Shown here one piece after another: positions 55,918 to 60,860 of a stretch of 64,000 nucleotides of DNA. The stretch lies in assembly GCF_003790525.1 (NCBI RefSeq), contig NZ_CP033635.1; one strand, written 5' to 3'. Position 1 is the first letter of the stretch, and every line of letters begins with the position of its first letter. A model generated the notes under the pieces. It had not been told where the DNA came from. It saw nothing but the letters and a program-made list of their open reading frames with translations, and ran no database searches. The translations under genes and the position numbers were made by a program. Source of the DNA: Escherichia coli. GTDB lineage: Bacteria > Pseudomonadota > Gammaproteobacteria > Enterobacterales > Enterobacteriaceae.

Positions 55918-57995
55918 GCCAGCTTGATGACACCCTCCTTGATGCGCTCACACACGTCACTTTTCCAAAGGGTTTTGTGTCAGCAGAGCCAGCGTCAATT
56001 GTCACCGTTGAGGATGTTGATTACCCGATCTGGCAAGTTGATGCGCTGGTCGTTGGTAGCGGCGCAGCAGGATTACGTGCGGCAGTTGAACTTAAACGCC
56101 GCCAGCAAAATGTGCTGATCGCCACCGCCGGGTTATATATGGGGACATCGGCATGTTCTGGCTCTGATAAACAAACACTGTTTACCGCCGCTACCGCGGG
56201 CAACGGCGACAACTTCACCAAACTGGCAGAGGCACTGGCGAGCGGTGGGGCGATGGATCACGACACCGCTTATGTCGAAGCGGTAGGTTCTCTGCACACT
56301 CTAGGCGGGTTGCAATATCTTGGTCTGGAATTACCGGAAGATCGCTATGGCGCGATTCTTCGTTATCAAACCGACCATGACGAAGCCGGGCGTGCAACCT
56401 CGTGTGGGCCGCGTACCTCAAGGTTAATGGTGAAAGTGCTGCTGGAAGAAGTACAGCGTCTTGCTATCCCAATGTTGACCAGTGCAACAGTGATTAAACT
56501 GCTACATCAGCGTGACGAAAACGGCGAAGACCGCGTGGCGGGGGCAATCCTCGCGACCGGTCATCGCGCCCATAACCCATGGGGGCTGGCAATTGTGACT
56601 GCGCCCAATGTGGTACTGGCAACAGGAGGGCCTGGCGAGCTTTATCGCGACAGTGTGTATCCACACAAATGTTTCGGCTCACTGGGGCTGGCGCTGGAGG
56701 AAGGTCTGACGCTCACCAATCTGACCGAAAGCCAGTTTGGTATCGGCACAACGCGCAGCACCTTTCCGTGGAATTTGTCCGGGACTTATGTACAGGTGAT
56801 CCCATATATCTATTCCGTGGATGCCGGGGGTAACGAGTATAACTTCCTCGCGGATTACTATCGCACCACCCAGGAGCTGGCTTCAAACATTTTCCGTAAA
56901 GGCTATCAGTGGCCGTTCCACGCCACGCGGGTAATGGATTTTGGCTCCAGCTTGTTAGATATGGCAGTAGCGCAAGAGCAGCAATCAGGGCGTCAGGTAT
57001 TTATGGATTTCAATCGTAATCCTGAACCTGTGCCGGGTGACCTGCCGTTCTCATTAGATCGACTGGACGACGACGTTCGCGCGTATCTGGAAAATAACGA
57101 CGCTCTGGCACCATCGCCCATCGAACGACTGCAACGAATGAATCCGCTGTCTATCTCGCTGTATAAGATGCACGGTTACGATCTCACCACGCAGCCATTG
57201 CAGTTTGCCATGAATAATCAGCATATGAATGGCGGCATTGAAGTCGATATCTGGGGACAAACATCTCTGCCCGGTTGTTTTGCAGTGGGGGAAGTTGCTG
57301 GCACACACGGCGTCACCCGACCTGGCGGCGCGGCGTTGAATGCCGGGCAGGTTTTTGCTGTTCGTCTGGCACGTTTTATTGGTTGCACGCAAAAGCGGAA
57401 TATTGATGGAGATATAGCACAGCTGGCAGCTCCGGCACTGGCTTCTATAAGAGAGATCATTACTCAGGCGCACGATAACGGGACCGGGATGCCGTTGTCG
57501 GTTGTGAGAGAAAAAATTCAGGCACGAATGTCTGACCATGCGGGATTTATTTGCCATGCCGATAAAGTCCGACGTGCCACTCGTGATGCCCTGCTATTGA
57601 ACGAATTTGTGCAACGACATGGATTGGCAATCAAACATGTGGGTGAAGTTGCCGAGCTGTTTATGTGGCGGCATATGACGCTGACTTCTGCCGCCGTCTT
57701 AACTCAACTGACACATTATATTGATGCAGGTGGTGGTAGCCGGGGAGCACGTATTATTCTCGACAGGGATGGAAATTCTATTCCGCAAACACGAAATGGT
57801 TTTTGTGATGCCTGGCGCTTTCGTTCAGAGCGTACTGAGGATAAAAAAGATAAACTGCTTATTCATTATTGCAACAGTATCTTTCACGTCAGAGAAACAC
57901 CTGTCCGTGAGTTTCCCACTATCCGCGGCATTTGGTTTGAAAAAAACTGGCCTGGCTTTCTTAATGGGACAATTTACCAGCCACAGGATGAATGA
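55914..57995 (+). CDS. FAD-dependent oxidoreductase, fumarate reductase/succinate dehydrogenase flavoprotein-like (693 aa)
   Basis: N-terminal dinucleotide-binding motif DALVVGSGAAGLRAAVEL; FAD_binding_2-like architecture; start overlaps the upstream stop (ATGA). Confidence 0.75.
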   Translation: MSQLDDTLLDALTHVTFPKGFVSAEPASIVTVEDVDYPIWQVDALVVGSGAAGLRAAVELKRRQQNVLIATAGLYMGTSACSGSDKQTLFTAATAGNGDNFTKLAEALASGGAMDHDTAYVEAVGSLHTLGGLQYLGLELPEDRYGAILRYQTDHDEAGRATSCGPRTSRLMVKVLLEEVQRLAIPMLTSATVIKLLHQRDENGEDRVAGAILATGHRAHNPWGLAIVTAPNVVLATGGPGELYRDSVYPHKCFGSLGLALEEGLTLTNLTESQFGIGTTRSTFPWNLSGTYVQVIPYIYSVDAGGNEYNFLADYYRTTQELASNIFRKGYQWPFHATRVMDFGSSLLDMAVAQEQQSGRQVFMDFNRNPEPVPGDLPFSLDRLDDDVRAYLENNDALAPSPIERLQRMNPLSISLYKMHGYDLTTQPLQFAMNNQHMNGGIEVDIWGQTSLPGCFAVGEVAGTHGVTRPGGAALNAGQVFAVRLARFIGCTQKRNIDGDIAQLAAPALASIREIITQAHDNGTGMPLSVVREKIQARMSDHAGFICHADKVRRATRDALLLNEFVQRHGLAIKHVGEVAELFMWRHMTLTSAAVLTQLTHYIDAGGGSRGARIILDRDGNSIPQTRNGFCDAWRFRSERTEDKKDKLLIHYCNSIFHVRETPVREFPTIRGIWFEKNWPGFLNGTIYQPQDE

Positions 57996-58492
57996 TATTG
58001 CAAAGGTTAATCACTATGCGAAATATAATTAGATCTATTAATGCTCTGCTTGCAACATTGAATATTACCATTTTGGCGATCATTGTGGCATGTGTGACAT
58101 GGCAAGTGGTAGCACGATTTATATTTAAAAGCCCCAGTATATTTACGGATGAACTCAGTCGTTTGCTTTTTATTTGCCTTGGCCTTTTTGGTGGTGCCTA
58201 TACCGCGGGGCAGAACCGGCATCTGGCGATTGATCTGCTTCCTATGATGCTGAAAGGAAAAGCCCGGCGTCATTTATTTTTGTGTATTCAGATTATCGTT
58301 ATTATCTTCTCTACCATCATTATGGTATATGGTGGTGGGCTATTAACGCTGGACACATTCGATTCAGGTCAAACCTCACCCGCTTTAGGCTGGCAGATGG
58401 GATATATCTATATGAGTATCCCGATTAGTGGTGTTCTTATTATTATATACACCATAGATATGGTTTTAACAGAACTTAAACAACCACTCTAA
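57992..58492 (+). CDS. TRAP transporter small permease (DctQ family); alternative start at 58016
   Basis: Four predicted hydrophobic helices; ATG at 57992 overlaps the upstream stop; second ATG at 58016 (MRNIIRS...). Confidence 0.8.
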   Translation: MILQRLITMRNIIRSINALLATLNITILAIIVACVTWQVVARFIFKSPSIFTDELSRLLFICLGLFGGAYTAGQNRHLAIDLLPMMLKGKARRHLFLCIQIIVIIFSTIIMVYGGGLLTLDTFDSGQTSPALGWQMGYIYMSIPISGVLIIIYTIDMVLTELKQPL

Positions 58493-58534
58493 AGATAATA
58501 AACAACAACCAACCATAGTAGGAATGGAGAAATT

Positions 58535-59836: not shown

Positions 59837-59888
59837 TGCGCATTCACTGGCGGCACCTGCCGCCATATTTATTAGAAAAGGAACATCT

Positions 59889-60860
59889 ATGAAAATAAAA
59901 GTATCCGCTGGCATTATCGGTGCTGTTCTTATGTTATCCGCAAGCCAGTCCTGGGCAGTGACATTAAAACTGAGTCATAATCAGGATAAGTCTCATCCTG
60001 TTCATAAAGCGATGGAGTTCTTTGCGAAAAAGAGCAAAGAGTACTCTAACGGTGATATTACTATTCGTATTTATCCAAATGGAACATTGGGTACTCAACG
60101 AGAAACAATGGAGCTGATTCGTTCTGGCGCTATTCCACTGGTAAAAACCAACGCGGCAGAAATGGAAGCATTTGAAAATTCCTATAAATTATTTAGCCTG
60201 CCTTATTTGTTCCGCGATCGTGATCATTATTATCAGGTCATGCAGGGCGATATCGGGAGAAAAATCCTCGACTCAACGAAAAGCAAAGGTTATTTCGGGC
60301 TGACTTTTTATGATGGAGGCGCCCGCAGTTTCTACGGCAATAAACCAGTACTGAAACCAGACGATCTCAAAGGCATGAAAGTCCGTGTCCAGCCAAGTCC
60401 TGGCGCAGTTGAAATGATCAAAGTCATGGGCGGTAACCCGACGCCACTGGATTACGGCGAGTTGTATACAGCCTTACAGCAGGGTGTGGTCGATATGGCA
60501 GAAAACAGCGTGATGGCGCTGACCACCATGCGTCACGGTGAAGTGGCAAAATCCTTCAGCCTTGACGAACACACTATGGTTCCCGATGTGGTTCTGATGA
60601 GCAATGCTGCGTTTGATAAACTTAGCCCGGAAAATCAGGCAGTTATATTAAAAGCAGCTAAAGAATCAATGAGCTACATGAAAGACTTGTGGAGCGAGGA
60701 AGAGAAACAAGAATTTGCAAAACTGGATAAAATGGGCGTGAAAGTCTACCAGGTAGATAAAGCTCCGTTTATCGAGAAAGTACAGCCAATGTACGCAAAC
60801 TTCGCTAAGGACAACCCAGCCCTTGCCCCAATGCTGGCTGATATTCAGGCAGCTAAGTAA
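59889..60860 (+). CDS. TRAP transporter periplasmic solute-binding protein (DctP family), 323 aa
   Basis: ORF with signal peptide MKIKVSAGIIGAVLMLSASQSWA followed by a DctP-like sequence. Confidence 0.88.
   Translation: MKIKVSAGIIGAVLMLSASQSWAVTLKLSHNQDKSHPVHKAMEFFAKKSKEYSNGDITIRIYPNGTLGTQRETMELIRSGAIPLVKTNAAEMEAFENSYKLFSLPYLFRDRDHYYQVMQGDIGRKILDSTKSKGYFGLTFYDGGARSFYGNKPVLKPDDLKGMKVRVQPSPGAVEMIKVMGGNPTPLDYGELYTALQQGVVDMAENSVMALTTMRHGEVAKSFSLDEHTMVPDVVLMSNAAFDKLSPENQAVILKAAKESMSYMKDLWSEEEKQEFAKLDKMGVKVYQVDKAPFIEKVQPMYANFAKDNPALAPMLADIQAAK

Follow-up and report, generated by a model that had tools for sequence, protein, structure and literature searches.

Sialic-acid uptake genes show how one catabolic pathway can be served by different transporters: a SiaPQM tripartite ATP-independent periplasmic (TRAP) transporter, a NanT carrier of the major facilitator superfamily (MFS), or a SatABCD ATP-binding cassette system stands beside the same nan genes. 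Here, we describe a related arrangement in a 64,000-nucleotide stretch of Escherichia coli DNA (assembly GCF_003790525.1, contig NZ_CP033635.1; hereafter "the window"), in which an accessory locus between ytfB (50459-51088) and rplI (60972-61421) carries a catabolic operon ending in the TRAP genes dctQ, dctM, and dctP (dctQMP). As with sialic acid, a conserved catabolic set is paired with unrelated transporter families across lineages; unlike that case, the alternation is found within a single species and within genera, at one slot, and has breakpoints that map within the neighbouring enzyme gene. The window is 100% identical, as the reverse complement, to the chromosome of E. coli SMS-3-5 (NC_010498.1), and is labeled SMS below.

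The transporter is like the hexuronate-type DctP-family TRAP systems: it is tripartite (DctP, DctQ, and DctM), and the best PDB matches of its DctP are the TRAP solute-binding proteins (SBPs) 4OVR, 4X8R, 4N8Y, and 4N15, at 39-41% identity (4X8R and 4OVR included). Its nearest relatives outside the clade linked to this operon are the uxaC/uxuAB-associated TRAP systems of Vibrio cholerae and Providencia rettgeri (DctP ~59-61% and DctM ~69% identical). Those accompany uxaC, uxuA, uxuB, kdgK, and eda of the Ashwell pathway, whereas the genes described here are attached to coenzyme A (CoA)-dependent enzymes, namely a CoA-transferase, a crotonase, a short-chain dehydrogenase/reductase (SDR), a flavoprotein, and a TIM-barrel protein. 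Linkage to uxaC/uxuA/uxuB/kdgK/eda was absent in E. coli, Klebsiella, and Rhodocyclaceae alike, where the TRAP genes follow the CoA-transferase/crotonase/SDR/flavoprotein genes. To our knowledge, YiaMNO, a 2,3-diketo-L-gulonate transporter, is the sole TRAP system of K-12. It belongs to the same transporter family and is likewise encoded in E. coli, but it is not an ortholog: the locus and partner genes differ, and DctM scores 290.6 bits against the YiaN NCBIfam equivalog, below its cut-off of 800.

Lawrence and Ochman are said to have proposed an amelioration model for compositionally atypical, horizontally acquired segments. The locus resembles such segments, and genomic islands in general, in its low G+C content (GC), overall and at third codon positions (GC3), and in its patchy occurrence among strains; GC3 of the enzyme genes follows that of the host, with the TRAP genes trailing in every one. 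It differs from acquired islands in that no integrase, transposase, or tRNA is annotated between ytfB and rplI, no flanking direct repeats bound it, and its junctions lie inside a gene and at a terminator. It also differs from a recent import under that model, as its synonymous divergence is too old.

We consider it probable that the SMS-3-5 operon is a recombinant chimera, the 3' TRAP end of which came from a TRAP-linked version of the same operon. The 5' part, from the TetR gene through codon 613 of the oxidoreductase gene and including the SDR, TIM-barrel, crotonase, and CoA-transferase genes, would represent the resident Escherichia lineage of an accessory catabolic operon that occupies the ytfB-rplI slot in many Enterobacterales and mostly ends in an MFS organic-acid importer. 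The 3' part, 3.2 kb comprising oxidoreductase codons 614-693 and dctQMP, would derive from a different, TRAP-linked version of the operon. Its TRAP end would have replaced the MFS end via homologous recombination. One of the two crossovers would lie in the last third of the oxidoreductase gene, and the second downstream, in conserved flanking sequence (EamA or the rplI terminator). The event thus proposed appears to have been a swap between two versions of one operon, not the de novo joining of unrelated modules.

Evidence for replacement comes from comparing complete E. coli genomes. Of 5,426, ~3,115 (~57%) carry the enzyme block (51937-57300), and ~2,300 are without enzyme genes. An SMS-type TRAP block occurs in ~1,443-1,461 genomes, an MFS gene unrelated to dctQMP in ~1,674-1,693, and yjfZ in ~2,513-2,539, the last set overlapping the MFS-carrying one. 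In enzyme-carrying genomes without the SMS-type TRAP block, similarity ends 405 bp into the query, at window position 57,754. Nissle 1917 has, in the same slot, the same TetR gene and five enzyme genes, followed by an MFS transporter gene, hipBA, and rplI; in such MFS-type E. coli, positions 57755-60917 are replaced by 3.9 kb with a different oxidoreductase tail, the MFS gene, and hipBA. By blastn and alignment, SMS and Nissle are 99-100% identical in nucleotide sequence in the outer flank and patchily so (86-100%) over the enzyme genes. Identity is 97-98.5% up to 57,599 and 83.5% in the interval 57,600-57,799, and is lost after 57,754; nothing is alignable over 57,755-60,917, and 99.8% identity resumes from 60,918, beside the rplI terminator. 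The right-hand junction is placed at 60918 because the TRAP, MFS+hipBA, and K-12 forms are all identical from there onward, and the left breakpoint is identical in a second TRAP-type strain. High-identity flanks, abrupt loss of similarity, and different content at one chromosomal site are the marks of a cassette replacement.

The left breakpoint falls within a gene that both endings share. The Kimura distance between the SMS and Nissle oxidoreductase proteins is 0.015 over residues 481-613 and 0.82 over residues 614-693, so that the last 80 residues are homologous in both endings but have diverged to intergeneric depth. The gene is therefore best described as a putative chimera, with residues 1-613 from the resident Escherichia lineage and 614-693 from the TRAP cassette. 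As each cassette brought its own oxidoreductase 3' end, the donor operon would already have had an orthologous oxidoreductase joined to its transporter, and breakpoints inside an enzyme gene argue for homologous recombination between two versions of the same operon. An earlier note on this DNA had suggested that the transporter and catabolic modules were assembled from different sources. The separate history of the 3' end holds up, given the TRAP/MFS alternation in E. coli and Klebsiella and the incongruent trees described below; the picture of independent modules does not, as each cassette has its own diverged oxidoreductase tail and the exchange would be between two operon versions.

At least four states of the ytfB-rplI slot exist in E. 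coli: TRAP, MFS+hipBA, MFS+yjfZ, and the K-12 deletion form. The last keeps a TetR fragment (the ytfA pseudogene), a 102-bp SDR remnant, and yjfZ, the deletion beginning within the SDR gene and ending ~100 bp beyond the stop codon of the MFS gene in an ancestor with an MFS+yjfZ-type locus like that of strain ET729. In Nissle, hipA is frameshifted. A plasmid-borne or mobile copy of the cassette was looked for by blastn of 72,556 plasmids, which returned no close copy; the only matches of ≥97% were E. coli records of 0.37-4.8 Mb, and the rest were ~66% TRAP paralogs. The features of the locus are as follows.

51089-51727, minus strand: TetR/AcrR-family regulator, divergent from the operon (RefSeq; Pfam TetR_N and TetR_C_29); GC 0.40, GC3 0.43.
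51805-51830 and 51849-51870, no strand: two palindromes in the TetR/SDR divergent intergenic region (inverted-repeat search); candidate operators.
51937-52728, plus strand: SDR oxidoreductase, annotated as 3-ketoacyl-ACP reductase (NCBIfam NF009386); GC-typical.
52738-53580, plus strand: xylose-isomerase-like TIM-barrel protein, AP_endonuc_2 (annotation, Pfam); GC-typical.
53590-54366, plus strand: enoyl-CoA hydratase/isomerase (crotonase) family protein (annotation, Pfam, NCBIfam).
54376-55917, plus strand: family-I acyl-CoA:acetate/3-ketoacid CoA-transferase, FadX/YdiF/Pct type (annotation, Pfam, NCBIfam).
55914-57995, plus strand: FAD-dependent oxidoreductase, 693 aa, NadB/FrdA/SdhA-flavoprotein-like (Pfam FAD_binding_2, NCBIfam and PDB similarity).
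57353-57754, plus strand: low-GC3 stretch of the oxidoreductase gene, still common to both E. coli haplotypes; GC3 0.41; its left edge is the GC3 change-point.
57755-60917, plus strand: variable TRAP cassette, consisting of the oxidoreductase tail and dctQ, dctM, and dctP; GC 0.4325; breakpoints from blastn and alignment.
58016-58492, plus strand: dctQ, TRAP small membrane subunit (annotation, Pfam); an alternative ATG at 57992 overlaps the oxidoreductase stop codon.
58535-59836, plus strand: dctM, TRAP large permease (Pfam DctM and TIGR00786, both above cut-off).
59848-59865, plus strand: G+C-rich hairpin (TGGCGGCACCTGCCGCCA) followed by a T-rich tail, between dctM and dctP (pattern scan).
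59889-60860, plus strand: dctP, periplasmic SBP, protein accession WP_000695886.1 (Pfam, NCBIfam, PDB similarity).
60924-60950, minus strand: rplI intrinsic-terminator hairpin (pattern scan), with the right-hand junction beside it.

The earlier note had judged by eye that dctQMP are markedly more AT-rich than the upstream enzyme genes, and the measured values agree (GC 0.40-0.45 vs. 0.49-0.55). For dctQ, dctM, and dctP, respectively, GC is 0.401, 0.438, and 0.449 and GC3 is 0.376, 0.421, and 0.460; the five enzyme genes range from 0.489 to 0.552 in GC and from 0.494 to 0.573 in GC3, and the remaining 50 annotated genes of the window average 0.522 (sd 0.030) and 0.565 (sd 0.069). In sliding windows, GC drops from 0.52-0.56 to 0.37-0.47 over the TRAP genes, and the 3,163-bp segment 57755-60917 ranks among the lowest 1.0% of windows of its length across the 64 kb. 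To correct for amino-acid content, expected values were calculated for each gene from its own protein sequence and the synonymous codon usage of the window. The expected GC3 of the TRAP genes is then 0.57-0.62 and the observed values fall 4.4-8.8 binomial SD below it, compared with 0.7-5.2 SD below for the enzyme genes. The GC gap between TRAP and enzyme genes is 0.090 (codon-weighted means), of which 0.047 (~52%) is predicted from amino-acid composition alone; about half of the gap is amino-acid composition and about half is synonymous codon choice.

The note had also proposed a check by sliding-window GC and codon usage, and the profiles prove not to be uniform over the operon. A single GC3 change-point over the genes from SDR to DctP has a likelihood ratio of 37.0, as against a maximum of 15.4 in 300 permutations, with GC3 of 0.54 to its left and 0.42 to its right. 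The break does not start at dctQ (57992), where the note had put it: the change-point is at 57,353 (support interval 57,191-57,701), within the FAD-oxidoreductase gene and ~640 bp upstream, and the recombination breakpoint at 57,754 is inside the same gene. These two positions differ, and the low-GC3 stretch between them, common to both E. coli haplotypes, groups with the Salmonella sequence; the oxidoreductase tail has a GC3 of 0.36 in frame. Across hosts, the GC3 of the enzyme genes follows the genome (E. coli 0.53, Klebsiella huaxiensis 0.68, SRR6680341 0.78, and Rhodocyclaceae 0.81-0.86), and that of the TRAP genes shifts with the host but stays below the enzyme genes in every enteric (0.43, 0.50, 0.69, and 0.56). 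The transporter-minus-enzyme offset in GC3 is -0.18 for TRAP vs. -0.02 for MFS in Klebsiella, and -0.10 vs. -0.06 in Escherichia. In the Rhodocyclaceae orthologs, GC3 is uniform (~0.8), with the TRAP genes nonetheless 4-7 points of total GC under the enzyme genes. In our reading, three things add up to the compositional break: an effect of amino-acid content, a GC3 deficit that persists and is either gene-specific or slow to ameliorate, and a genuine chimeric junction; under the proposed chimera, the GC3 deficit in every enteric host and the amino-acid bias of membrane proteins (about half) would together make the break visible.

The same alternation is found beyond E. coli. Our scan of one genome per species was anchored on the oxidoreductase by exact 8-residue patterns; it missed K. 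huaxiensis, and absence from it is therefore not evidence of absence. It placed an MFS-type operon in the same slot in Escherichia whittamii, Escherichia sp. MOD1, and Entomohabitans; K. grimontii, Enterobacter, and Salmonella have one there too, the Sodalis operon is MFS-type in a different genomic context, and the Escherichia albertii contig stops within the oxidoreductase gene. Complete TRAP-type operons occupy the fklB-ytfB...EamA-rplI slot in K. huaxiensis, SRR6680341, and ERR4503945; the Rhodocyclaceae TRAP-type operon lies at another site, includes a MaoC gene as well, and has dctP in inverted orientation. Nucleotide identity between K. huaxiensis (TRAP) and K. grimontii (MFS) is 88% to about oxidoreductase residue 493 and 88.7% from the 3' end of EamA; this is a second, independent within-genus alternation, and its left breakpoint is a different one. 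The gene content of the operon varies in other ways: the Salmonella and Sodalis operons are without a called crotonase gene, Salmonella has a MaoC dehydratase gene after the MFS gene, and Rhodocyclaceae carry MaoC plus a crotonase only 39-40% identical to that of E. coli. Some Escherichia genomes encode a fused crotonase and CoA-transferase protein of 678-711 aa, which suggests read-through or loss of a stop codon between the adjacent genes.

Identity levels fall off differently for the two parts of the operon. For the CoA-transferase the ladder is smooth, from 98% in E. coli through 90% in K. oxytoca/grimontii, 86% in Enterobacter, 84% in Salmonella and Entomohabitans, and 79% in Sodalis to the 70s and then ~65% in diverse phyla. 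In Entomohabitans, the MFS protein is 78% identical and the enzymes 78-88%. For DctP and DctM the ladder is sparse and has a cliff. K. huaxiensis DctP is 84% identical and that of a few further contigs 79-87%, and two Rhodocyclaceae have DctM at 85-86% and DctP at 75%; below the cliff (Vibrio, Photobacterium, Providencia, and others), DctP is 55-61% and DctM ~69% identical. A long branch separates the operon-linked TRAP clade from the Vibrio/Providencia clade, whose members are found in Providencia and V. cholerae within uxaC/uxuB/uxuA/GH2/kdgK/eda clusters and have GC3 of 0.28-0.48. This low GC3 fits an AT-rich source for the cassette, whose next relatives would serve hexuronate/glucuronide clusters in AT-rich Gammaproteobacteria. 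Rhodocyclaceae were rejected as direct donor: their cassette has GC 0.60 and GC3 ~0.82, vs. 0.43 and ~0.43 in E. coli, and their dctP is inverted.

All trees were built by neighbour-joining on simple corrected distances with bootstrapping, not by maximum likelihood. Residues 1-480 of the oxidoreductase cluster by species, with Escherichia and Salmonella together in 100% and K. huaxiensis, ERR4503945, and K. grimontii together in 89%; ERR4503945 is thus Klebsiella-like in this tree. For the oxidoreductase tail, no bootstrap replicate (0 of 300) unites the TRAP and MFS forms of E. coli, or the two Klebsiella species. The earlier note had called for phylogenies of DctP/DctM against the CoA-transferase, and these are incongruent. 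Among the four TRAP-type enteric lineages, the DctQMP concatenate pairs E. coli with ERR4503945 and K. huaxiensis with SRR6680341, whereas the CoA-transferase pairs K. huaxiensis with ERR4503945 and E. coli with SRR6680341, each in 500/500 bootstraps. Cassette and flank are therefore discordant by this method, and the enzyme genes also conflict among themselves. The rate-normalised enteric-Rhodocyclaceae distance is 3.4-7.0 for TetR and the enzymes and 1.2-2.4 for DctQ, DctM, and DctP; scaled to the divergence among enterics, the separation of Rhodocyclaceae from enteric proteins is 2-5 times smaller for TRAP than for the enzymes.

The TRAP genes are intact and under strong purifying selection in two TRAP-type Escherichia lineages; in dctM, two TRAP-type strains differ at 6 of 433 amino acids and at 58 of 223 four-fold sites. 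A recent exchange of TRAP genes between E. coli and Klebsiella is unsupported, with four-fold sites saturated in enzymes and TRAP genes alike (divergence at these sites, K4, of 0.7-1.6), a comparison that cannot resolve older exchange events. Strain SCPM-O-B-8794, the GTDB representative labeled "E. coli," was compared with SMS-3-5 over window positions 49621-62411. Its K4 is 0.24-0.48 for fklB and for the enzyme and TRAP genes; divergence is higher again in ytfB and TetR, but K4 is only ~0.01 at rplI and rpsF. Either this is a divergent lineage, or there is a sharp divergence boundary at the ribosomal-protein operon.

DctP matches PF03480 at 280 bits (cut-off 23.4), TIGR00787 at 247.8 (175), and NF037995 at 252 (50), and has a hydrophobic N-terminus (...VSAGIIGAVLMLSASQSWA) preceding the mature domain, as judged by eye. 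DctQ matches PF04290 at 107.8 bits, and DctM matches PF06808 at 398.5 and TIGR00786 at 458 (cut-off 268). The three genes are adjacent and on the same strand, with separate small and large subunits, which is the DctPQM-type TRAP architecture. The gap between the oxidoreductase gene and dctQ is 20 bp and a pattern scan of the junction found no terminator-like site, so co-transcription of dctQMP with the enzyme genes is likely. An internal promoter or terminator splitting the two was considered and rejected, with 8 promoter-like sites vs. 8.8 expected and no terminator-like site at the junction. The hairpin between dctM and dctP is possibly an intercistronic attenuator or an mRNA stabiliser. Upstream, the palindromes in 51805-51870, GTAATTTCAT..ATCAAATTAC and ATCAACCAACT/AGATGGTTGAT from the inverted-repeat search, may be TetR operators.

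As for substrate, 4X8R is glucuronate-bound and 4N8Y galacturonate-bound (PMC11668362). The alternative MFS carrier falls in the D-galactonate/ACS family, with a score below the family cut-off. Taken together, the similarity of DctP to hexuronate SBPs and the MFS family match suggest that both endings are organic-acid importers, the substrate of which is probably carboxylic and sugar-acid-like. Judged from gene content, the enzyme set suggests activation by CoA transfer, then hydration and oxidation steps. In strains with the cassette, uptake of this substrate would depend on a binding protein; in other strains, the MFS carrier would import it. Our literature searches found no publication on this operon.

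Could the compositional break have arisen with no separate origin at all? The operon would then have been inherited as one unit, and its AT-richness would be intrinsic, reflecting hydrophobic, T-rich membrane-protein usage combined with weak codon selection in poorly expressed distal and regulatory genes. We find this unlikely, although several observations fit it. About half of the GC gap follows from amino-acid composition, the Rhodocyclaceae TRAP genes are lower in total GC than the enzymes at equal GC3, the GC3 deficit persists despite saturated synonymous sites between hosts, and low GC3 is common elsewhere in the window (e.g., in bdcR, yjgH, and two hypothetical genes). The TetR gene is as AT-rich as the TRAP genes; its GC3, like that of the oxidoreductase tail, is low in every enteric host, with either transporter type, and the MFS gene is mildly lowered too. 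This last pattern also weighs against the chimera that we prefer, for it points to gene- or position-specific effects; composition alone is consequently no clean marker of origin, and the note's use of AT-richness as such a marker is weakened on this count as well as by the amino-acid effect. On the other side, the membrane transporter genes cycA (0.62), treB (0.66), ytfT (0.69), mgtA (0.60), and ytfF (0.64) have high GC3, so that membrane-protein status alone does not depress GC3 here; DctP is soluble yet low in GC3; Rhodocyclaceae have no GC3 deficit; and within a genus the deficit is 2-9 times larger for TRAP than for MFS. There is, moreover, the direct evidence of cassette replacement and incongruent trees, and the TRAP/MFS alternation contradicts intrinsic AT-richness as the sole explanation.

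The proposed chimera has to meet further difficulties, of which the first concerns direction. A swap from MFS to TRAP is not proven, and TRAP could be the older state because TRAP-linked operons exist outside the enterics: in Rhodocyclaceae, too, TRAP genes are linked to the enzymes, with uniform GC3, and as this linkage is old (Klebsiella, Rhodocyclaceae) and the enzyme genes are mutually incongruent, the note's two distinct modules are not what is found. In addition, still other groupings emerge from the crotonase (470/500) and TIM-barrel (450/500) genes, which makes the whole operon a recombination mosaic and not two clean modules, and the tail tree splits TRAP-linked from MFS-linked sequences in only 48% of bootstraps because it has just 80 columns, and is a neighbour-joining tree. 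The TRAP genes of E. coli and K. huaxiensis have reached saturation at four-fold sites (K4 1.0-1.6); those of two TRAP-type Escherichia lineages differ by a K4 of 0.32-0.37, equal to that of the enzymes and fklB (0.24-0.35), which indicates an old cassette and strains any reading of it purely as un-ameliorated foreign DNA. It is conceivable, but in our estimation improbable, that the TRAP-ended operon is ancestral in enterobacteria, that the MFS gene with its own oxidoreductase tail is the invader, and that low TRAP GC3 is a long-standing property. Such an account would be helped by the occurrence of TRAP-linked operons in two proteobacterial classes, by the co-divergence of TRAP genes with enzymes and fklB just mentioned, by dctM diversity within E. 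coli at the ordinary core-genome level (97-99%), and by the same slot and EamA neighbour in three non-coli enteric TRAP-type lineages. It must contend with an MFS type that is far more widespread among enteric lineages and also marks the sister taxa of every lineage of TRAP type (E. whittamii, Escherichia sp. MOD1, Entomohabitans, K. grimontii/oxytoca, Enterobacter, Salmonella, and Sodalis), with an MFS GC3 near that of the enzyme genes from which TRAP deviates, and with an MFS divergence that tracks the enzymes, as in Entomohabitans. The TRAP/MFS alternation itself is ordinary operon mosaicism, that is, non-orthologous displacement of a transporter by recombination, in an unusually clean example. 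A more far-reaching interpretation, to which we give little credence, is that TRAP and MFS are functionally distinct uptake alleles, high-affinity binding-protein-dependent scavenging vs. a simple symporter, and that niche-dependent selection has long preserved them as a polymorphism across species and genera in Escherichia and Klebsiella. The catabolic route they would feed, CoA-dependent and hitherto undescribed, would handle a uronate-like sugar acid by means of the Pct/YdiF-type CoA-transferase, crotonase, SDR, NadB/FrdA-like flavoprotein, and xylose-isomerase-like TIM barrel.

Several neighbouring regions of the window deserve a brief mention. Over positions 50500-52400 (the ytfB 3' end, TetR, and the 5' half of the SDR gene), SMS-3-5 is 70-90% identical in nucleotide sequence to Nissle and ~84% to K-12, and ytfB and TetR are only 77-80% identical to those of another TRAP-type E. 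coli, with a ytfB K4 of ~1.3; this divergent patch is a separate imported segment, unrelated to the TRAP cassette. Between ytfE and cycA, two hypothetical genes on the minus strand (45092-47775) have GC3 of 0.42-0.45 (z = -5 to -7) and form a strain-variable insertion, as ytfE directly adjoins cycA in Nissle. The most AT-rich part of the window is positions 1-2000 (GC 0.30-0.39), which overlaps a frameshifted "DNA-binding protein" pseudogene. Finally, treR, the trehalose operon repressor gene (~9842-10792), is annotated as an incomplete pseudogene in SMS-3-5, with its N-terminus missing.

For those who use composition to look for acquired genes, this locus carries a caution: half of the GC break is an amino-acid effect, a change-point is not the same as a recombination breakpoint, and low GC3 can outlast saturated synonymous divergence. 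With its breakpoints mapped, the locus also illustrates how one uptake system can take the place of another in a catabolic operon, through exchange of a TRAP cassette and an MFS gene with an enzyme gene as the crossover site. With TRAP, MFS, and enzyme-less forms in E. coli, and the alternation repeated in Klebsiella, it is a natural experiment that can be used to compare TRAP and MFS uptake of one substrate. In addition, it draws attention to an uncharacterised CoA-dependent pathway, which pathogenic and commensal E. coli (Nissle, UTI89, ST131, and SMS-3-5) commonly carry and K-12 lacks.

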